Source: a virus (Duplodnaviria > Heunggongvirae > Uroviricota > Caudoviricetes). Taken from it: a stretch of DNA of 21,445 nt. Under the pieces are notes generated by a model, which searched no databases, was not told the origin of the DNA, and worked only from the letters and a program-made list of their open reading frames with translations. Below, in pieces: positions 1-7,825 of the stretch. Position numbers and translations under genes: made by a program. Every line of letters starts with the position of its first letter. The stretch's first letter is position 1. The DNA lies in IMG/VR virus record IMGVR_UViG_2778261069_000007. One strand, written 5' to 3'.

Positions 1-496
1 TCATAAGGCTGAAAGTCAGTCTTTCTTTGTATTTTTTATTTATTGCAGTTACTTCTTTTTGTTTTGGTTTATCACCAAGTTTTTTTATTTCTTCTTTATT
101 TTGATTTCTGATAAATTCATTACTTATTGTTTCTAAATGAGAAAAGAGAGTGTTCAGACTGCATGAACCGTGGTGATACATATAGAGACCAGAAAGATTA
201 GATTTTTTAATTAAGAAAAAGTTGAAATTAGCAAGTTTGTCACTTCCTTTAAGATCTTCAATTTTAAGCTGGAATTTACCATCAACAAATTGCGACTTAC
301 AGTTCTTTTTTTGGTTTCTGAATGTGACAACTAATCCATAATAGAAATCATTCACATCCGAAATGAGAATTTTACGAGTATAGTCTGTGCGACTGTGTTC
401 TCTGTTTGATGCGTTGATAAAAGCATTCATTACGTCAACGGTATTAATGTTTTTGTTATTGTTATTTATTGTAAATCCTATGCTTCTAACTTTCAT
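1..496 (-). CDS. Hypothetical protein, partial (3' end beyond window start); AT-rich accessory (moron) gene
   Basis: Minus-strand frame open from ATG (complement of 494-496) to position 2, then continues off the window; translation begins MKVRSIGFTINNNNKNINTVDVMNAF. First 60 nt are about 27% GC, against roughly 55% in the structural genes. A perfect TATAAT on the minus strand (complement of 575-580) lies about 80 nt upstream. No recognisable family. Confidence 0.45.
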   Translation of the reverse strand, partial: MKVRSIGFTINNNNKNINTVDVMNAFINASNREHSRTDYTRKILISDVNDFYYGLVVTFRNQKKNCKSQFVDGKFQLKIEDLKGSDKLANFNFFLIKKSNLSGLYMYHHGSCSLNTLFSHLETISNEFIRNQNKEEIKKLGDKPKQKEVTAINKKYKERLTFSLM

Positions 497-1124: not shown

Positions 1125-2177
1125 ATGAAAAATACTGTAAAAATAAACAGTGTTGATTTAATCAACGCTGATTGCCTGCATTTTATTCAGTCCCTGCCTG
1201 ATGATTCCATTGACCTGATTGTTACCGATCCGCCGTACTTCAAGGTGAAACCCAACGGCTGGGACAATCAGTGGAAAGGGGACGAAGATTACCTGAAGTG
1301 GCTGGACCACTGTCTGGCTCAGTTCTGGCGGGTGCTGAAACCTGCCGGAAGCCTTTACCTGTTCTGTGGACATCGCCTCGCATCTGATATCGAGATCATG
1401 ATGCGTGAACGTTTCAACGTTCTTAACCATATTATCTGGGCGAAGCCGTCCGGACGATGGAACGGGTGTAATAAAGAAAGTCTGCGCGCATATTTTCCCG
1501 CAACAGAACGCGTTCTGTTTGCTGAACATTACCAGGGGCCATATCGCGGCAAAAGTGACGGCTATGCGGCAAAAGAAAGTCAACTCAAACAGCACATAAT
1601 GGCACCGCTGATTTCGTATTTCAGGGATGCTCGTGCCGAACTGGGTATAACGGCAAAACAGATTGCCGAAGCCACTGGTAAGAAAAACATGGTTTCCCAC
1701 TGGTTTGGTGCCAGTCAGTGGCAGTTGCCGAATGAGGCTGACTACCGGAAGTTGCAGGCACTGTTTTCCCGTATAGCGGCAGAGAAGTTTCAGGAACAAC
1801 AACTGGAACAACCACACCACCAGCTGGTGGCATCTTATGATTCACTGAATCGCAAATATTCTGAATTGCTGGATGAGTTTAAAACTCTCCGGCGCTATTT
1901 CTCCGTATCAGTTTCCGTGCCTTATACCGACGTCTGGACGCATAAACCCGTTCAGTTCTACCCGGGTAAACATCCGTGTGAGAAGCCTGCGGATATGCTC
2001 CGGCAAATAATCAATGCCAGTAGTCGACCAGGCGATCTGGTTGCTGATTTCTTTATGGGATCCGGTTCCACAATAAAAGCAGCAATGGCGATGGGGCGTC
2101 GGGCGTTAGGTGTTGAGCTTGAGTCAGATCGGTTTAACCAGACGGTGAAAGAGGTAAGTGAACTGGTGGGGAAATAA
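1125..2177 (+). CDS. DNA methyltransferase, beta-class amino-methyltransferase (N6-adenine or N4-cytosine); apparently orphan
   Basis: 350 aa. Catalytic DPPY motif (IVTDPPYF) near the N-terminus and AdoMet-binding FxGxG motif (DFFMGSGST) near the C-terminus, the motif order of beta-class MTases. No obvious restriction partner. Confidence 0.9.
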   Translation: MKNTVKINSVDLINADCLHFIQSLPDDSIDLIVTDPPYFKVKPNGWDNQWKGDEDYLKWLDHCLAQFWRVLKPAGSLYLFCGHRLASDIEIMMRERFNVLNHIIWAKPSGRWNGCNKESLRAYFPATERVLFAEHYQGPYRGKSDGYAAKESQLKQHIMAPLISYFRDARAELGITAKQIAEATGKKNMVSHWFGASQWQLPNEADYRKLQALFSRIAAEKFQEQQLEQPHHQLVASYDSLNRKYSELLDEFKTLRRYFSVSVSVPYTDVWTHKPVQFYPGKHPCEKPADMLRQIINASSRPGDLVADFFMGSGSTIKAAMAMGRRALGVELESDRFNQTVKEVSELVGK

Positions 2178-2227: not shown

Positions 2228-2485
2228 ATGCATTCACACCATCATCAAATATCTATGATCCCACTTACCATGAGTTCACCCATTAAAGGTTTTTCACTGT
2301 ATGTAGAAAGCGAAGACATGGCTGTCGCTATAGCTGAGCTTGAAAATGCCTTATCACAGCTCAAGAACGGAGATAAGGCATTCAAAGAAAGTGGCACGCT
2401 GGTTGGTAACGTCAGAGCAAGTTATTGCTATCCTTACCGTCCTCATTGTGCCGCGAAAGGTCTTTATTGGGATGAAGGGGATTAA
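2228..2485 (+). CDS. Hypothetical small protein, about 85 aa
   Basis: ORF 2183..2485; ATG at 2228 is preceded by GGGAGG at 2215-2220. Its stop codon overlaps the stop of the convergent minus-strand gene (TTAA at 2482-2485). No recognisable family. Confidence 0.4.
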   Translation: MHSHHHQISMIPLTMSSPIKGFSLYVESEDMAVAIAELENALSQLKNGDKAFKESGTLVGNVRASYCYPYRPHCAAKGLYWDEGD

Positions 2486-2994
2486 GCAAGGACTTGTTCA
2501 CCGATAGTTACTGGTAACGGACAAATGTATTCCCAGACTGGATCAGGGTTAAAAGTTTTTCCTGACCAGTAAAGCTCCATTCTGTAGGTGAATTCCAATA
2601 CCGATGTATCATTTCTTAATAATGACATATCTCCGCGATGATAACTATCTGTTTGTATTATGAAAATTTTATCTGATGGTTTTCCGTCTGTAAGTCGAAA
2701 ATGTTTAGCCTCCTCCAGGTTACCCCAGGCGAAGAGTGACGTATAGCGAGAAGGTTTTTGCGGGCAAACTCCTCTTCGGTAAAACTCAAGTCCCCAGTCG
2801 ATGAGTTCGTTTTTATTATAAATTTTTGCCGCATTATTAATGAGGTATCCTTCGCCTTGTGGAGCAAGCCCGCGCGGAAAAAGTTTGTCTACCAGAGATG
2901 ACATTTCAACAGGAGTTATATCGGAGAATTGCTTTGGTGTAACGATATCGCCTGTTGAGTATATTCCTCGGCGATCAACCATAAATAGTTTCAT
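2482..2994 (-). CDS. Hypothetical protein, about 170 aa; accessory (moron) gene of unknown function
   Basis: ORF 2482..3006 on the minus strand. The second ATG (2994) has a GGAG RBS six nt upstream on the minus strand, so it is the likelier start. About 40% GC. Transcribed against the surrounding late genes, so it must have its own promoter in 2995-3211. No known motif recognised. Confidence 0.55.
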   Translation of the reverse strand: MKLFMVDRRGIYSTGDIVTPKQFSDITPVEMSSLVDKLFPRGLAPQGEGYLINNAAKIYNKNELIDWGLEFYRRGVCPQKPSRYTSLFAWGNLEEAKHFRLTDGKPSDKIFIIQTDSYHRGDMSLLRNDTSVLEFTYRMELYWSGKTFNPDPVWEYICPLPVTIGEQVLA

Positions 2995-3023
2995 TAATTT
3001 CTCCATTGATAGTTGTTACTTTT

Positions 3024-3060: not shown

Positions 3061-3235
3061 AGATGCTTAATCTGACACTTCATCTGACCCTAGTATGTGC
3101 CGGTTTTTTTTATTTAAGGCCGCTGACAGGTCCATTTAGTGCGACGCCTTTCCCCGTTTCCGCTCCTGGAATATTCGGGGATTTTTTATTCCCTCAATTT
3201 GCACCCGCGATATGTGCGAGGTGAGAGATGACGAA

Positions 3236-3571
3236 ATGCCTCATAACCCAAATACCTGGCCGGACTGGCTGGAGTTGTTCCAGAGCTGGTGGCGTGGAGA
3301 TACGCCGCTGGGCGCAGTGATTATGTCGATTGTTATGGCTGGTTTGCGTATTGCCTATTTTGGTGGTGGTGGCGGCTGGAAACGAAAAACACTCGAAATT
3401 TTGCTCTGTGGCGCTCTGACGCTGACATTTGCATCCGCGCTTGAGTATGTCGGATGGCCTAAATCGCTTTCTGTTGCCATTGGTGGTGGGGTGGGGCTGA
3501 TCGGGGTCGATGCAATTCGTGGGGCTGCAATGAGAGTAATCGGTAACAAGTTTGGTGGCTCTAAGGAGTAA
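3236..3571 (+). CDS. S: Holin, lambda S-like (class I, three predicted TM segments)
   Basis: Pattern and length resemble lambda S (hydrophobic segments, glycine-rich turn, charged C-terminus). Directly precedes the endolysin. ORF opens at 3212; start at the in-frame ATG 3236 was chosen, but 3212 is possible (dual start?). Confidence 0.8.
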   Translation: MPHNPNTWPDWLELFQSWWRGDTPLGAVIMSIVMAGLRIAYFGGGGGWKRKTLEILLCGALTLTFASALEYVGWPKSLSVAIGGGVGLIGVDAIRGAAMRVIGNKFGGSKE

Positions 3572-3574
3572 TTT

Positions 3575-4051
3575 ATGCAGGTACTAAATTCCCAGCGTAA
3601 AGCTTTCCTCGATATGGTGGCATGGTCAGAAGGAACGGATAATGGACGGCAACCGACATGTAACCACGGTTATGACGTTATTGTTGGAGGCGAACTATTC
3701 ACTGATTACTCCGATCATCCTCGCAAACTTGTCACACTAAACCCGAAACTTAAATCAACAGCAGCTGGTCGTTATCAGATTCTTTCACGCTGGTGGGATG
3801 CTTACTGTAAACAGCTTGGCCTGAAAGACTTCTCTCCAAAAAACCAGGACGCTGTGGCACTGCAACAGATTAAAGAGCGTGGCGCTTTGCCGATGATTGA
3901 TCGCGGCGATATTCGTCAGGCAATCGACCGTTGCAGCAATATATGGGCTTCATTACCCGGTGCAGGTTACGGTCAGTATGAACATAAAATCGGTGACCTG
4001 ATTGCCCGATTTAAAGAGGCTGGTGGGGTGGTAAATGAAGTTGAGCTATAA
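3575..4051 (+). CDS. R: Endolysin, lambda R-type lytic transglycosylase
   Basis: 158 aa; near-collinear with lambda R as recalled (QRKAFLDM-AWSEGTDNGRQ, NHGYDVIVGGELFTDYSDHPRKLVTLNPKLKST, GALPMIDRGDIRQAIDRCSNIWASLPGAGYGQ). AAGGAG RBS at 3561-3566. Confidence 0.95.
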   Translation: MQVLNSQRKAFLDMVAWSEGTDNGRQPTCNHGYDVIVGGELFTDYSDHPRKLVTLNPKLKSTAAGRYQILSRWWDAYCKQLGLKDFSPKNQDAVALQQIKERGALPMIDRGDIRQAIDRCSNIWASLPGAGYGQYEHKIGDLIARFKEAGGVVNEVEL

Positions 4052-4427
4052 GCTGGTTATCGCTGCATTCCTTTTAACTGTCGTCAGTTCTTTCATCTGG
4101 TCAGCCAACCACTACTACAGCAAATATCAGCACGAAAAGAGACGTGCTGATGAGGCTGTACAAAATGCCAAATCGGCAACTGCCATTACCAATAACGTCC
4201 TGCAATCACTGCAAATCGTCAATACAGTACTGGAGGCTAACCAGCATGCAAAACAGCAGATCGCACTGGAGTCACAGAGAACCCAGGAAGATATCAAAAT
4301 GGCTGTTGCGGATGATGATTGTGCTTCACGTCCTGTGCCTGCTGCCGCTGCTGACCGGTTGCGGAAGTACGCGGACAGTTTACGTGAGCGTTCCGGTGAC
4401 ACCACTGCCACCCAGCCTGACGTCTGA
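4035..4427 (+). CDS. Rz: i-spanin Rz
   Basis: 130 aa; N-terminal TM segment (LVIAAFLLTVVSSFIW), coiled-coil-like middle, charged C-terminus. Start overlaps the end of R, as in lambda. Confidence 0.85.
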   Translation: MKLSYKLVIAAFLLTVVSSFIWSANHYYSKYQHEKRRADEAVQNAKSATAITNNVLQSLQIVNTVLEANQHAKQQIALESQRTQEDIKMAVADDDCASRPVPAAAADRLRKYADSLRERSGDTTATQPDV

Positions 4428-4581
4428 AACTCCTGTACCGCTAATACCAAAACCGCTCACATATGGCGCAAGCCTCGACCTGAGTGTTGATTTGTTGTCA
4501 GCATTAGGGCAGTGCAATCAGGACAAAAAAGAAATCCGAATAATTGAGCAGCTGCGTAATAACGCCGATCAATATAAATAG
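4312..4581 (+). CDS. Rz1: o-spanin Rz1 (outer-membrane lipoprotein), overlapping rather than embedded
   Basis: Starts in the +1 frame inside Rz at ATGATG (4312). Signal peptide with lipobox LLTGC, then a proline-rich mature region (PVTPLPPSLTSETPVPLIPKP). Extends 154 nt past the Rz stop. Confidence 0.75.
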   Translation: MMIVLHVLCLLPLLTGCGSTRTVYVSVPVTPLPPSLTSETPVPLIPKPLTYGASLDLSVDLLSALGQCNQDKKEIRIIEQLRNNADQYK

Positions 4582-4651
4582 TATTAACAATACTGTATTG
4601 ATTTTATTTTTTCGTTAGACTTTTCCATGAGTTATGGATGAGGTTAACGAT

Positions 4652-4996
4652 ATGAATATAAAAAATTCAATTTTGTTAGTGATATCACTATTAGTGAGTG
4701 GTTGTGACAACGCACCTAAATTTGATGGTACCAGCCAGGAATCGCTCCGATATTCAGCAGAAAAAGTCTTTGAGTCATTATCTGAAGAGAAGAAGGCCGA
4801 ATTGAAAACGGCGATTGTCGATACTTTGGGGTACTACGATACTCAGGCAGAGTTAAGCAACGATAAAAGTTACTCTTCGAAGAAAATGAGTCTGGTAGTG
4901 TTCAATGGAAAAACGGCTGATCAGGTTATTTCCGAAGCTGCTACTTATCGGGAGAAAAAAGAAAAACTTATTCAACAATATCTGCACAAAAAGTGA
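4652..4996 (+). CDS. Hypothetical lipoprotein (moron) downstream of the lysis cassette
   Basis: ORF 4634..4996; ATG at 4652 is preceded by GAGGT. Signal peptide with lipobox LVSGC (MNIKNSILLVISLLVSGCDNAP). About 40% GC. Followed by a strong terminator. Occupies the position that bor holds in lambda but is not Bor-like in sequence. Confidence 0.6.
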   Translation: MNIKNSILLVISLLVSGCDNAPKFDGTSQESLRYSAEKVFESLSEEKKAELKTAIVDTLGYYDTQAELSNDKSYSSKKMSLVVFNGKTADQVISEAATYREKKEKLIQQYLHKK

Positions 4997-5001
4997 TAAA
5001 T

Positions 5002-5025
5002 GGCCGCAATGAGCGGCCTTTTACT
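5002..5025 (+). terminator. Rho-independent terminator (GGCCGC-AATGA-GCGGCC + TTTT)
   Basis: Perfect 6-bp GC stem 5002-5018 followed by a T-run, immediately after the lipoprotein stop. Confidence 0.6.
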
Positions 5026-5197
5026 TGTTATTTTTAGCGGGTCCTCCTGGCGATTTGAAACACCGGGGGGCTGTGGACACGCGGAAAACGGCTGGTTTTT
5101 TGCATTTTATCGGCATCATCATCTTTTATCTAACCTGTTGATATTTCAGTTGTGAAATTATTCACGATGTCGATTCGCTTAAATATTGTTCACCATC

Positions 5198-5704
5198 ATG
5201 GATAACGAACTGAAAAATCTTCGCCTCAATATTAACCAGCTGGCGGCGCTGACTAATCTGCATCGTCAGACCGTCGCAAGTAGACTGAGCAATGTTGAGC
5301 CTGCCCCCGGAAGTAACTCCCGCCTCAAGCTGTATTCAGTTCTGGATATTCTCAGGGAATTACTGGGCAGGACTACGACGCCGGAGCTGGTTGCTGTTGA
5401 CAAAATGACACCGCCGGATCGAAAGGCGTGGTTTCAGTCTGAGCGGGAGCGCCTCAAGTTTCAGCAGGAGACCGGAGAGCTTATCCCGGCCTCAGAAGTC
5501 AGCCGGGAGTTTGCCTCAATGGCAAAAGCTGTCGTTCAGGTACTGGAAACGCTACCGGATATTCTCGAGCGTGACTGTGCAATGACACCGTCAGCCGTCG
5601 TCAGGGTGCAAAAAGTCATAGATGACCTGCGGGATCAGATTGCCATGAAGGTTGAGCTGGCAGAGTCGCCGGAACAGGAGGACAGTTTGTCACAAGAGGA
5701 GTAA
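5198..5704 (+). CDS. Terminase small subunit (Nu1-like, N-terminal HTH)
   Basis: ORF opens at TTG 5186; first ATG is 5198 (MDNELKNLRLNINQLAALTNLHRQTVASRL, HTH-like). Immediately upstream of the large terminase. Confidence 0.8.
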   Translation: MDNELKNLRLNINQLAALTNLHRQTVASRLSNVEPAPGSNSRLKLYSVLDILRELLGRTTTPELVAVDKMTPPDRKAWFQSERERLKFQQETGELIPASEVSREFASMAKAVVQVLETLPDILERDCAMTPSAVVRVQKVIDDLRDQIAMKVELAESPEQEDSLSQEE

Positions 5705-5707
5705 GCC

Positions 5708-7825
5708 ATGCGACAGGCCACGGCGGCGGAAGTCAGAAAGAATACCGCCGGGATCATAAAGGCACCGCGTCGGATGCCTGTTGCCGAGGCCGTTCATAAG
5801 TACATGCGGGTTCCCGTGGGCGTCGGAAACTCCGTCGAATGGGATCCGCAACTCGCCCCCTATGTCGTGGAGCCGATGAACTGCCTGGCATCACGTGAGT
5901 ATGATGCTGTTATTTTTGTTGGTCCGGCCCGAACAGGTAAAACAATTGGGCTGATTGACGGCTGGGTGGTGTACAACGTGGTGTGTGACCCGTCGGATAT
6001 GCTTATCGTCCAGATGACGGAAGAAAAAGCGCGTGAACACTCCAAAAAACGTCTGGCCAGAACATTTCGCGTCAGCCCGGAAGTGGCATGCAGGCTGAGT
6101 CCGTCGCGTAACGATAACAACGTTCATGACCGCACGTTTCTTGCCGGAAACTACCTCAAGATTGGCTGGCCCTCCGTCAACATCATGTCATCCTCGGATT
6201 TTAAATGCGTTGCACTGACGGATTACGACCGTTTTCCGGAGGATATCGACGGGGAAGGCGATGGTTTTTCGCTGGCCTCAAAACGAACCACCACATTTAT
6301 GTCGGCGGGCATGACCCTGGTGGAGAGCTCGCCAGGGCGGGAAATCACCAATACCAAATGGCGACGAAAATCACCCCATGAAGCGCCACCCACTACCGGT
6401 ATTCTGGCTTTATATAATCGCGGTGATCGCCGTCGATGGTACTGGCCCTGTCCGCACTGTGGTGGGTACTTTCAGCCTGCTATGGAGGCGATGACCGGTT
6501 ACCGGGATATTGCCGATCCGGTAAAAGCCAGTGAAGCGGCACATATCGTCTGCCCGCACTGTAACGGGGTGATCACAGCTGATAAAAAGCGGGAGCTTAA
6601 CGGACGTGGCGTCTGGCTCAGGGAAGGTCAGAGCATTGATAAAGCCGGGAATATATCGGGTGATGCCCGTCGTTCCCGCATCGCGTCCTTCTGGATGGAA
6701 GGTCCCGCCGCGGCTTACCAGACCTGGGCACAGCTGGTTTACAAATTACTGACGGCAGAGCAGGACTATGAAACCACAGGCAGTGAAGAAACACTGAAAA
6801 CGGTGATCAACACTGACTGGGGCTTACCTTATCTGCCACGCGCGGCGACCGAACAGCGCAGGGCTGATGTACTGATGCAGCGGGCGGAGGACTACGGTAA
6901 ACGTCTGGTACCACCGAAGGTGCGTTTTCTGCTGGCATCGGTGGATGTACAGGGCGGGAAGAAACGTCGTTTTGTGGTGCAGATTATCGGTTACGGTGAG
7001 AACGGCGAACGCTGGCTGGTGGATCGCTATAACATTCGTCAGTCCCTGCGCTGTGATGAAAACGGCGAGGCACTGACGATTCATCCGGGCTCTTACCCTG
7101 AGGACTGGCAGTTGCTGATCACGGATGTGCTGGAGAAAACATACCCTCTCCAGTCAAATCCTTCCCGCCGTATGCCCGTGCTGGCTATGGCTGTGGACAG
7201 TGGGGGTGAGGATGGTGTGACGGATAATGCGTATAAGTTCTGGCGCACATGCCGCCGTGATGGTCTGGGAAAACGGGTATACCTGATAAAAGGTGACAGT
7301 ACCCGTCGCCAGAAAGTGATCACCCGAACACACCCTGATAATACCGGACGAAGCGATCGCCGGGCTGATGCCCGCGGCGAAGTACCGGTATATCTGTTGC
7401 AGACCGATCTGCTCAAAGATCAACTCAGCAATAATCTGGAGCGTGAAACCCCGGGGGCCGGGTATATCCATTTTCCCGACTGGCTCGGTGAGTGGTTTTA
7501 TGAGGAGCTGACTTATGAGGAGCGGGGCAGCGACGGAAAATGGCGCAAGCCAGGTAAAGGGAACAACGAAGCATTCGACCTGTTCTGCTATGCCCATGCC
7601 GTCGCTATTCTGCGTGGTTACGAAAAAATCCGAGACTGGGAGCAGCCGCCTGCCTGGGCGGCATCTCAGGACACAAATCCGGACATTATTGACGGGGAAC
7701 GCCCCGGGGAGAGGGGAGTGAAAAAAGCGATATCCGCTCGTTCATCTCCGGTTGCCGTCACCGAACAGGCCAGCCCACTGTCTGGCGGCTGGCTGGGGGT
7801 CAGTGGTAACGGAGGCTGGCTATGA
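5708..7825 (+). CDS. Terminase large subunit (GpA-type ATPase/nuclease)
   Basis: 705 aa; Walker A motif VGPARTGKT; CxxC...CxxC pairs (CPHCGG, CPHCNG) as in lambda-A-type terminases. GAGGAG RBS upstream. Confidence 0.95.
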   Translation: MRQATAAEVRKNTAGIIKAPRRMPVAEAVHKYMRVPVGVGNSVEWDPQLAPYVVEPMNCLASREYDAVIFVGPARTGKTIGLIDGWVVYNVVCDPSDMLIVQMTEEKAREHSKKRLARTFRVSPEVACRLSPSRNDNNVHDRTFLAGNYLKIGWPSVNIMSSSDFKCVALTDYDRFPEDIDGEGDGFSLASKRTTTFMSAGMTLVESSPGREITNTKWRRKSPHEAPPTTGILALYNRGDRRRWYWPCPHCGGYFQPAMEAMTGYRDIADPVKASEAAHIVCPHCNGVITADKKRELNGRGVWLREGQSIDKAGNISGDARRSRIASFWMEGPAAAYQTWAQLVYKLLTAEQDYETTGSEETLKTVINTDWGLPYLPRAATEQRRADVLMQRAEDYGKRLVPPKVRFLLASVDVQGGKKRRFVVQIIGYGENGERWLVDRYNIRQSLRCDENGEALTIHPGSYPEDWQLLITDVLEKTYPLQSNPSRRMPVLAMAVDSGGEDGVTDNAYKFWRTCRRDGLGKRVYLIKGDSTRRQKVITRTHPDNTGRSDRRADARGEVPVYLLQTDLLKDQLSNNLERETPGAGYIHFPDWLGEWFYEELTYEERGSDGKWRKPGKGNNEAFDLFCYAHAVAILRGYEKIRDWEQPPAWAASQDTNPDIIDGERPGERGVKKAISARSSPVAVTEQASPLSGGWLGVSGNGGWL

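Follow-up and report, generated by a model that had tools for sequence, protein, structure and literature searches.

A mobile DUF6694 lipoprotein gene in a cargo hotspot before the terminase genes of a lambdoid prophage

A small lipoprotein gene of the Pfam family DUF6694 sits between the lysis genes and the packaging genes of a lambdoid prophage of the Escherichia fergusonii/albertii type, at the end of its late (lysis) operon. The gene is a true moron, an inserted piece of cargo, and the stretch in which it sits, just 5' of the cos/terminase module, is a cargo and recombination hotspot. A moron is a self-contained unit of cargo within a phage genome (PMC3594210). The best explanation overall, mobile DUF6694 cargo that works by post-adsorption exclusion, is offered tentatively.

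All positions given here are those of the window, which is the whole stretch of 21,445 nucleotides of viral DNA that was analysed. All features discussed are on the plus strand.

The gene, its cargo unit and the hotspot

The gene (4652..4996) encodes a protein of 114 amino acids that matches PF20404 with E=1.7e-13. The score is 51.3 bits, with a cut-off of 24.3, and the match spans residues 4-98 of the protein and positions 1-99 of the 102 in the profile. DUF6694 is the sole match in a Pfam scan. The protein is already catalogued, both in this Pfam family and as the identical RefSeq entry WP_223671977.1 (Escherichia fergusonii/albertii), which is named 'DUF6694 family lipoprotein'. An in-frame ATG at 4634 is the less likely start. 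It has no Shine-Dalgarno sequence, and homologues begin at the position of ATG 4652, which has a GAGG 8 nucleotides upstream.

The GC content of the gene is 37.7%, versus 52.1% for the whole window, which puts it among the lowest 2.6% of 345-nucleotide windows. The lysis genes on one flank are at 48.9%, and the small and large terminase genes (terS and terL) on the other are at 53-56%. A preliminary description of this DNA, made from the sequence alone, spoke of a low-GC lipoprotein gene with an LVSGC lipobox and termination of its own, and all of this holds up. The termination comes from an intrinsic terminator found by a scan at 5002..5028. Its stem-loop, GGCCGC-AATGA-GCGGCC (5002-5018), is followed by a T-run, and has a folding energy of -15.9 kcal/mol (z = -2.67). 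Every prophage copy has a stem-loop and T-run at this same place, but the stem sequences differ: GGTCGC/GCGACC in loci L007 and L040, and CCCACC/GGTGGG in L041.

Upstream of the gene lies an AT-rich leader (4585..4651, 27% GC) with a -10-like TAGACT and the Shine-Dalgarno sequence. Around 65 nucleotides 5' of the ATG are kept among the prophage copies and the chromosomal copies in Klebsiella. The leaders of relatives read TTGATA-16-TAGACT, as in locus L004, or GTGATA-16-TAGACT. Versus these, the window copy has a deletion of 7 nucleotides, which leaves TTGATT-12-TAGACT, with a spacer of just 12 nucleotides. A consensus scan of the window copy found no sigma-70 promoter for the lipoprotein gene. 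There were no matches to Rfam elements in the region, nor to tRNAs in the window.

Leader, gene and terminator together make up a mobile cargo unit of ~430 bp (~4585-5025). The terS/terL module is the same in Citrobacter phage Chris1, but the DUF6694 gene is missing there, and similarity to the window begins only at ~5022, directly after the terminator. Close homologues of the protein (48-96% identity) occur in over 20 prophage loci. In each case they lie immediately 5' of this terS, and the lysis cassettes that precede them fall into three or more unrelated kinds. The marks of a moron that the gene bears are its deviant base composition, its presence or absence among relatives, and its own terminator. 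The preliminary description's use of that label stands on these three counts; an independent promoter, which would be expected of a classical moron, is not evident in the window copy.

What else can occupy this place was surveyed in 52 IMG/VR prophage contigs that have the packaging module's cos-like block in common, by scoring the last gene before that block. This gene is DUF6694 in 9 of the 52 and Bor (PF06291) in 6. The other cargos include GrlR-like, cytochrome b561, DUF7226 and DUF4145 genes. The lipoprotein gene had been described as lying in the bor position, and this turns out to be literally so.

The cos-like block itself (5038..5135) is conserved with loci that carry other cargo or no cargo. 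The left end of the linear Hafnia phage yong2 record aligns to position 5080 of the window, and near this position we infer the probable cos cleavage region. Next comes the small terminase subunit, which is of the DUF1441 type (5198..5704; Pfam PF07278, E=5e-48; phrog_141, E=2e-66). Its ATG at 5198 agrees with a 168-aa call in locus L003. The large subunit (5708..7825), of the lambda GpA type, is 100% identical to its homologue in that same locus, which has precomputed Pfam matches to GpA_ATPase and GpA_nuclease.

A gene at a recombination hotspot might be a hitch-hiker in decay that no longer functions. Its promoter-like spacing is, after all, broken, and compared with E. fergusonii CP042945 there are 7 differences in the 345 nucleotides of the gene, 4 of them read as non-synonymous, against only 9 across the adjoining 2.6 kb of terS and terL. 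These are small counts, and the holin region is equally variable, so this excess of substitutions should not be over-read. Against decay, the open reading frame is intact, and the structure model is a confident one (pLDDT 89). Across the 12 closest sequences neither the lipobox nor the CDN motif varies, and 31 residues are likewise invariant. Because dN/dS in DUF6694 is 0.05-0.17, the gene is, on this measure, under purifying selection and functional. The same range rules out a pseudogene, and makes decay very improbable indeed.

The spanin pair and the lysis cassette

Directly 5' of the spanin genes lie a class I (lambda S-like) holin (3212..3571; Pfam PF05106, E=3e-27; phrog_126, E=3e-40) and a lambda R-like endolysin (3575..4051; phrog_90 endolysin, E=1e-61). 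A Pfam scan gave no match for the endolysin. Both proteins are 96% identical to their counterparts in Shigella phage SfIV. The spanins close this holin-endolysin cassette.

The i-spanin Rz is LysB-like (4035..4427) and matches phrog_214, Rz-like spanin, with E=3.5e-47. Its match to Pfam DUF2570, at 23.7 bits, is slightly under the cut-off of 26.6. It has an N-terminal membrane anchor, KLVIAAFLLTVVSSFIW, of which the hydrophobic segment can be read off the sequence as residues 6-22, and then a periplasmic helical domain. It is 84% identical to Rz of SfIV.

The o-spanin Rz1 is LysC-like (4312..4581). It matches Pfam LysC (PF23793, E=5e-16, 58.8 bits with a cut-off of 27) and phrog_456 (E=4e-26), and because of these family matches it is taken as a genuine gene; a chance open reading frame is excluded. 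With the annotated o-spanin of SfIV it shares 73% identity. Its lipobox is LTGC, with a Gly at +2 that makes it the outer-membrane type, and the mature part is proline-rich. The exact start is ambiguous. Candidates are ATG 4312, ATG 4315, TTG 4306, which would add one Arg to the n-region of the signal peptide, and ATG 4246, the counterpart of the start in the SfIV record.

The preliminary description noted that Rz1 begins within Rz, in the +1 frame, and runs 154 nucleotides beyond it. The coordinates bear this out: (4312-4035) mod 3 = 1, and the overlap is 116 nucleotides. Judged by gene order, anchor, lipobox and families, the two genes form a two-component spanin of the LysB/LysC type with an overlapped architecture. 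In this architecture the start of the o-spanin gene falls within the i-spanin gene, in a different frame, and the o-spanin gene continues past the i-spanin stop. It is the most frequent architecture among two-component spanins, at 228 of 528 systems (PMC6139136). The LysB/LysC pair of phage P2 is built alike, with an o-spanin gene that opens in the +1 frame within its partner and runs on past it, and the window's Rz1 shares the Pfam LysC match. In the Shigella phages SfIV, SfV and SfII the same overlapped pair is annotated, and the cassette DNA is 88-91% identical to that of the window. There is no substantive difference between the window and these overlapped spanins.

Lambda has its pair in the same place after holin and endolysin, but there Rz1 lies entirely inside Rz, and the window pair is from another sequence family. 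The overlap had been presented as something of note. Given that it is the commonest arrangement, and that SfIV, SfV and SfII are annotated identically, it is not; the spanin layout is ordinary. The last ~10 codons of Rz1 do diverge from SfIV, SfV and SfII. This is the mosaic junction with the cargo unit.

The lipoprotein gene points the same way as Rz1, its start lies 70 nucleotides 3' of it, and a scan found no terminator in between. Together with the lack of a convincing promoter of its own, this could mean that the gene is an accessory of late lysis or release. Co-transcribed with S-R-Rz-Rz1, it would work in the periplasm as the cell lyses, for instance tuning the endolysin or the spanins, or shielding progeny from abortive injection into lysing cells. 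The protein is also predicted to face the periplasm, as spanins do. Such a role is improbable, however. The gene goes with the terminase/cos module and not with any one cassette upstream, sibling phages lack it, and relatives of it are found in tail modules or chromosomes. Most relatives' leaders also hold the better-spaced promoter-like pair TTGATA-16-TAGACT. That the gene is a part of the lysis cassette proper was rejected, since the cassettes that precede it are of at least three unrelated kinds.

Predicted membrane sorting

The signal peptide, MNIKNSILLVISLLVSG, is followed by the lipobox Cys, which is Cys18 when counted from ATG 4652. The lipobox is L-V-S-G-C. A check for signal peptidase II had been proposed, and a signal of that type is present, with the cut falling between LVSG and C. 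This Cys does not vary in 19 aligned sequences.

The mature protein starts with C-D-N, so that there is an Asp at position +2. All 20 close homologues examined have this Asp: positions +2 and +3 are DN in 18 copies, DD in one and DQ in one. In enterobacteria, Asp at +2 is the Lol-avoidance signal, which retains a lipoprotein in the inner membrane; the strong form of this signal is an Asp without adjacent basic residues, and the absoluteness of the +2 rule has itself been questioned (PMC6469965). On Asn at +3, a check of the literature turned up nothing. The Rz1 of the window carries the Gly at +2 that is expected of an outer-membrane lipoprotein.

An AlphaFold2 model of the lipoprotein has helices at residues 29-41, 45-68, 76-84 and 89-113. 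The mature domain is therein predicted to be an all-helical four-helix unit. Taken together, the sequence signals suggest a lipidated protein that is retained in the inner membrane and whose small four-helix domain points into the periplasm.

Position +2 is variable when the family is taken more widely. A rough pattern count in 143 sequences gave Gly 36 times, Ser 33 times and Asp 28 times, next to others. This variation, and the fact that the +2 rule is a prediction, weigh against exclusion at the inner membrane.

The preliminary description proposed that the lipoprotein blocks an outer-membrane receptor or confers serum resistance. Bor is the obvious comparison, as lambda Bor (PF06291) is also a small lipoprotein, and its gene fills the final cargo slot ahead of cos. 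Among sibling prophages that share the cos-like block, Bor is even found in exactly the slot of DUF6694, and a small lipoprotein in a low-GC cassette with its own terminator fits a Bor-like serum resistance well enough. It would also fit masking of a phage receptor as done by Cor or Llp. Llp of T5 and Cor of phi80 and N15 are small phage lipoproteins that bring about exclusion, often encoded next to the tail or receptor-binding genes, and they target FhuA in the outer membrane.

Likeness to Bor ends with the slot. As the preliminary description held, the protein is unlike Bor: it has no match to Pfam Lambda_Bor at E<=0.01, whereas the Bor proteins of the sibling loci score 104-107 bits (E=4e-31). 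It is from a different family, with no sequence relationship, and it is predicted to be all-helical. The DUF6694 gene is in the orientation of the late operon, and bor is antisense. The mature N-terminus of the sibling Bor copies is C-A-Q, with Ala at +2. In every one of the 20 close homologues examined the Asp at +2 precedes an Asn, Asp or Gln, and this predicts that the lipoprotein stays in the inner membrane, unlike Llp and Cor, which both act on FhuA. The signal therefore argues against receptor masking or serum resistance at the outer membrane, which we consider quite improbable here.

Family distribution and possible function

DUF6694 is a large family, with 1492 clusters at 50% identity. 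There is no function or solved fold on record for it. A literature search for 'DUF6694' yielded no paper mentioning the family, and the lipoprotein had no match in PADLOC or NCBIfam. A profile search of PDB sequences gave chance-level matches only, and Foldseek of the model against PDB and BFVD returned nothing at E<=0.001. The searches by HMM and structure that had been suggested earlier thus delivered a Pfam family, and no significant fold match in PDB or BFVD.

The short form was not found with tblastn in 50,697 phage records, nor was the gene found with megablast and blastn in 5,426 complete E. coli genomes. Long members of the family (~265-290 aa) correspond to phrog_7468. In loci L043, L047 and L026 the long form has the tail chaperone gene on one side and the tape-measure gene on the other. 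It matched 4 isolated phages, where it is annotated merely as 'lipoprotein'; in PHB10 it comes after the tape-measure gene, and in PseuP_222 between tail-tip genes K and I.

There are also chromosomal homologues. Those of Arsenophonus and of 11 Xenorhabdus species representatives show 31-38% identity and lie beside sprT-metK, and those of Klebsiella, at 54% identity, have a non-phage context. Homology to a housekeeping lipoprotein had been named beforehand as an outcome that would count against the earlier reading, and to this extent it was found.

These homologues suggest a cellular role that is not necessarily phage-related. The gene could be host-fitness cargo, a captured cellular envelope protein that benefits the lysogen through stress tolerance, colonisation or envelope homeostasis. 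The size of the family and the absence of a PADLOC match fit with this, and the hotspot also holds non-defence genes such as Bor, cytochrome b561 and GrlR-like. The window copy has no evident promoter for expression in a lysogen, however, and the repeated insertion of family members in phage tail modules, next to tape-measure and tail-tip genes, is hard to square with a general housekeeping role. We regard host-fitness cargo as possible, though doubtful.

The function we put forward as most likely, itself an unlikely enough proposition and one made by analogy, is that the lipoprotein may protect the lysogen or infected cell against a superinfecting phage, by hindering it once it has adsorbed. 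No good promoter is visible in the window copy, and transcription would probably be mainly Q-antiterminated late readthrough from Rz1. Perhaps there is weak additional transcription in the lysogen from the degenerate promoter. Anchored in the inner membrane with its helical domain in the periplasm, the protein would block either the periplasmic transit of the superinfecting phage or the entry of its genome through the inner membrane. The outer-membrane receptor would not be masked. HK97 gp15, P22 SieA and the lipoprotein Ltp of phage TP-J34 would be analogues for this step.

Ltp, from a Streptococcus phage, is a small helical prophage lipoprotein on the outer face of the cytoplasmic membrane that brings about superinfection exclusion. 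It is reported to block DNA injection via the tape-measure protein. Topologically it corresponds to a lipoprotein retained in the inner membrane of a diderm.

HK97 gp15 is YebO-like, a small inner-membrane protein encoded by a moron, and Enterobacteriaceae have homologues of it on their chromosomes; it keeps phage genomes from entering and leaves outer-membrane receptors untouched (PMC3594210). In favour of exclusion, the slot of long-form DUF6694 between tail chaperone and tape-measure gene is the slot of this very moron. Exclusion was demonstrated for gp15, whereas for DUF6694 it is argued by analogy. Searches in Pfam, PADLOC, PDB and BFVD found no homology of fold or sequence between DUF6694 and HK97 gp15/YebO, P22 SieA or TP-J34 Ltp.

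Some observations weigh against exclusion. DUF6694 has no tie to any function, by homology or by experiment. Expression in the lysogen is doubtful, because there is no sigma-70 site and the 7-nucleotide deletion has destroyed the -35/-10 spacing; a prophage-protective role is weakened by this.

Exclusion might extend to the family as a whole. DUF6694 would then be a widespread family of superinfection-exclusion lipoproteins on the periplasmic face of the inner membrane, which stop incoming phage genomes or tape-measure proteins at the periplasm or inner membrane, with a short form in the bor slot ahead of cos and a long form next to the tape-measure and tail-tip genes. We rate this broader proposal as rather unlikely. 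The short form would be that of enterobacterial prophages; the long form, with an extra C-terminal domain, would be that of Pseudomonas-type siphophages.

As it stands, the region in the window is routine prophage anatomy. The survey documents a cargo hotspot 5' of cos/terminase that holds Bor, DUF6694, cytochrome b561, GrlR-like, DUF7226 and DUF4145 genes. DUF6694 comprises some 1,500 sequence clusters, and its members turn up again and again in the classic places for morons, ahead of cos and next to tape-measure and tail-tip genes. The close homologues in Enterobacteriaceae all carry an inner-membrane retention signal. What this anatomy leaves is a concrete hypothesis that is cheap to pursue. 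If post-adsorption exclusion is true, it would add a class of lipoproteins to the few known inner-membrane exclusion proteins of Gram-negatives, and would give access to a poorly understood part of genome entry, its periplasmic stage.

The late region and its spanin genes

The window is the late region of a lambdoid prophage. Running along the forward strand are a class I holin (3212-3571; PF05106, E=3e-27), a lambda R-like endolysin (3575-4051; phrog_90, E=1e-61), the i-spanin Rz (4035-4427; phrog_214, E=3.5e-47), the o-spanin Rz1 (4312-4581; Pfam LysC PF23793, E=5e-16), a DUF6694 lipoprotein of 114 aa (4652-4996; Pfam DUF6694, E=1.7e-13) followed by an intrinsic terminator (5002-5018), and the small (DUF1441 type, 5198-5704) and large (GpA type, 5708-7825) terminases. 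The same arrangement occurs on an E. fergusonii chromosome, CP042945.1, at 98% identity across the 10.5 kb that align. Immediately 5' of the holin there is a terminator-like stem-loop with a T-run (3164-3190, forward strand). This may be a tR'-type terminator, read through by Q-modified polymerase.

Rz1 is read in the +1 frame of Rz, overlaps it by 116 nt and continues for 154 nt past the Rz stop, which is the overlapping, non-embedded pair of the preliminary description. That description set the layout against the fully embedded one of lambda. The overlapped kind is in fact the commonest: Kongari et al. surveyed two-component spanins and counted 228 overlapped pairs, the prototype being P2 LysB/LysC, along with 182 embedded and 118 separated ones (PMC6139136). 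An overlapped pair is likewise annotated in the records of Shigella phages SfIV, SfV and SfII, whose lysis-cassette DNA is 88-91% identical to that of the window (in SfIV, Rz is at 38506-38898 and Rz1 at 38717-39058).

Mature Rz1 shares 73% identity with the SfIV o-spanin and has Gly at +2, as expected of an outer-membrane lipoprotein. Its start is ambiguous, with candidates at 4246, 4306, 4312 and 4315. The SfIV record places the start of its o-spanin at the counterpart of ATG 4246, for an n-region of 23 residues. Gene calls in E. fergusonii take ATG 4312, where the n-region has no basic residue, and TTG 4306 would yield MRMMIV... The spanin pair is ordinary.

A cargo slot before the probable cos

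SfIV-type lysis-cassette similarity is lost some 35-55 nt short of the Rz1 stop. The packaging module is shared, at 84% identity, with Citrobacter phage Chris1; that similarity sets in at around 5022, directly after the terminator, and Chris1 has other small genes upstream. The cargo unit of leader, lipoprotein gene and terminator therefore spans roughly 4585 to 5025.

Close homologues of the lipoprotein (48-96% identity) occur in E. fergusonii, Citrobacter youngae, Enterobacter roggenkampii and some 15 IMG/VR prophage contigs. In prophages, all lie directly 5' of the same terS/terL type. The lysis cassettes upstream of them are of at least three kinds, unrelated to each other: S/R/LysB-LysC, holin_2 with Phage_lysozyme and DUF2514, and one further variant.

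Between the slot and terS lies a strongly conserved non-coding block (5038-5135). Querying IMG/VR with CTCCTGGCGATTNNNAACACCGNGGGG from this block (5046-5072) returned 54 contigs which have it in common, 52 of them with enough upstream sequence. The last gene before the block is DUF6694 in 9 of these 52, and Bor in 6 (PF06291, E=4e-31 and 4e-30), on the opposite strand as in lambda. The remaining contigs carry other cargo, such as a GrlR-like gene, cytochrome b561, DUF7226, DUF4145 and unknown membrane proteins. The earlier placement of the lipoprotein "in the bor position" is thus literally correct, since some contigs with this block carry Bor there and others DUF6694. Between terminator and block, most relatives carry an additional stretch of some 20-25 nt, CAATTGATAATTACTATCATTTG, that is missing from the window.

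Position 5080 is where the left end of the linear Hafnia phage yong2 record aligns. This suggests a cos cleavage site nearby, about 85 nt 3' of the lipoprotein stop, in which case the lipoprotein gene would be the last on the virion chromosome. This analysis newly shows the slot before cos to be a hotspot for cargo, bor included.

The window holds further cargo. A second low-GC gene (40%; 2482-3006, reverse strand), located between the holin and a DNA methyltransferase, matches phrog_5663, a family of unknown function. For the E. fergusonii counterpart of this gene there is a precomputed DUF2441 match. In one homologous prophage locus (L004) the Q-to-holin region has KwaA with a 294-aa neighbour, which is Kiwa-like, and another (L003) has a KAP NTPase further upstream. 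The Q-to-holin region resembles a hotspot for defence genes or cargo. The N6/N4 methyltransferase (1125-2177, forward strand; PADLOC MTase_II, E=3.5e-152) recurs at 79-99% identity in several sibling prophages, 5' of different lysis cassettes; a scan of neighbouring genes identified no restriction partner. A partial ORF (2-496, reverse strand) runs off the left end, with at least 165 aa from ATG 496 and GC down to 27.5%. It has no Pfam or PADLOC match. Similarity to CP042945 begins only at 547, so that different cargo occupies 2-496 instead of the KAP NTPase gene.

The lipoprotein and its predicted location

The lipoprotein is an already catalogued protein, identical to RefSeq WP_223671977.1, "DUF6694 family lipoprotein [Escherichia fergusonii]". 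Its start is most likely ATG 4652, because GAGG lies 8 nt upstream and homologues begin at the same position; an E. albertii entry has a 120-aa version from an upstream ATG. Several features reported earlier are borne out. The protein has the lipobox LVSGC, its gene has a GC content of 37.7% compared with 52.1% for the whole window (among the lowest 2.6% of 345-nt windows), the gene's own terminator folds at -15.9 kcal/mol (z = -2.67), and a Pfam search found no similarity to Bor.

An exhaustive profile search (E<=0.001) places DUF6694 in 1492 clusters at 50% identity. The short form is about 100-115 aa. The long form, of about 260-290 aa, has an additional uncharacterised C-terminal domain (phrog_7468) with the conserved motif ...SRAYFKGT..SPGRS.PW...F.Y.IPGGLEPGE... 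No paper mentioning the family was found, and PADLOC and NCBIfam have no model for the lipoprotein.

In unsaturated pairs the gene has a dN/dS of 0.05-0.17, so selection maintains it. Its dN and dS each usually exceed those of the neighbouring terS several-fold, a pattern that fits independent allele exchange.

The terminator structure is conserved across copies, with differing stems (GGCCGC/GCGGCC, GGTCGC/GCGACC, CCCACC/GGTGGG). A leader of about 65 nt accompanies the gene, also in Klebsiella chromosomal copies, and in relatives it contains a plausible promoter, TTGATA-16-TAGACT or GTGATA-16-TAGACT. When the window leader (4585-4651) is compared with those of L004, L029 (another such locus) and others, two GTTAG/GTTAT motif copies flank the -10-like TAGACT. 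In the window and E. fergusonii leaders the putative -35/-10 spacer is 12 nt rather than 16, owing to a 7-nt deletion, so expression may differ between alleles. A consensus scan found no promoter in the window leader, and there is no terminator between Rz1 and the lipoprotein gene. The window copy is probably transcribed in large part by read-through from the Q-antiterminated late operon. That the protein is itself a late-operon accessory of lysis or release is unlikely.

After the lipidated Cys, 18 of the 20 close homologues examined have Asp-Asn, one has Asp-Asp and one Asp-Gln. In 2001, Terada et al. reportedly placed Asn at +3 among the strong combinations. From the conserved Asp at +2, which in enterobacteria is the predictive signal for inner-membrane retention (PMC6469965), the lipoprotein is predicted to be inner-membrane-anchored and to face the periplasm. 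Bor copies from this slot instead carry Ala at +2. In the wider family the residue varies, as expected of a sorting rule specific to the Enterobacterales lineage; much of the family is probably outside it. The serum resistance or receptor masking proposed earlier would both need an outer-membrane protein, and with the sorting signal predicting the other membrane, that model is improbable.

Possible functions

The leading hypothesis, a tentative one drawn from context, is superinfection exclusion after adsorption. It is favoured because of the recurrent insertion beside genome-delivery genes, the predicted inner-membrane or periplasmic location, and the moron behaviour. Ltp of Streptococcus phage TP-J34 is a precedent for a lipid-tethered helical exclusion protein, and neither homology nor fold similarity to it was detected.

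Long-form DUF6694 lipoproteins (about 265-290 aa, phrog_7468) are found in the homologous loci L043 (3917-4792), L047 (3950-4765) and L026 (3959-4756), and in the phage records OP626800.1 (33838-34644) and MK524177.1 (204-1007). They sit within tail gene clusters, beside tape-measure or tail-tip genes: just 3' of the tape-measure gene in Escherichia phage PHB10, and between tail-tip genes K and I in Pseudomonas phage PseuP_222. In the three loci the slot, between tail chaperone and tape measure, is that of HK97 gp15. This first-named moron product sits in the inner membrane and prevents genome entry, leaving outer-membrane receptors alone; its chromosomal homologues are YebO (PMC3594210).

It is just as conceivable that the lipoprotein is an envelope fitness factor unrelated to phage. 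Chromosomal orthologues adjoin sprT-metK in Xenorhabdus and Arsenophonus, and Klebsiella homologues are in a non-phage context, all of which supports this reading.

The conserved, predicted inner-membrane sorting signal is also new in this analysis, and it redirects the functional hypothesis for the lipoprotein.
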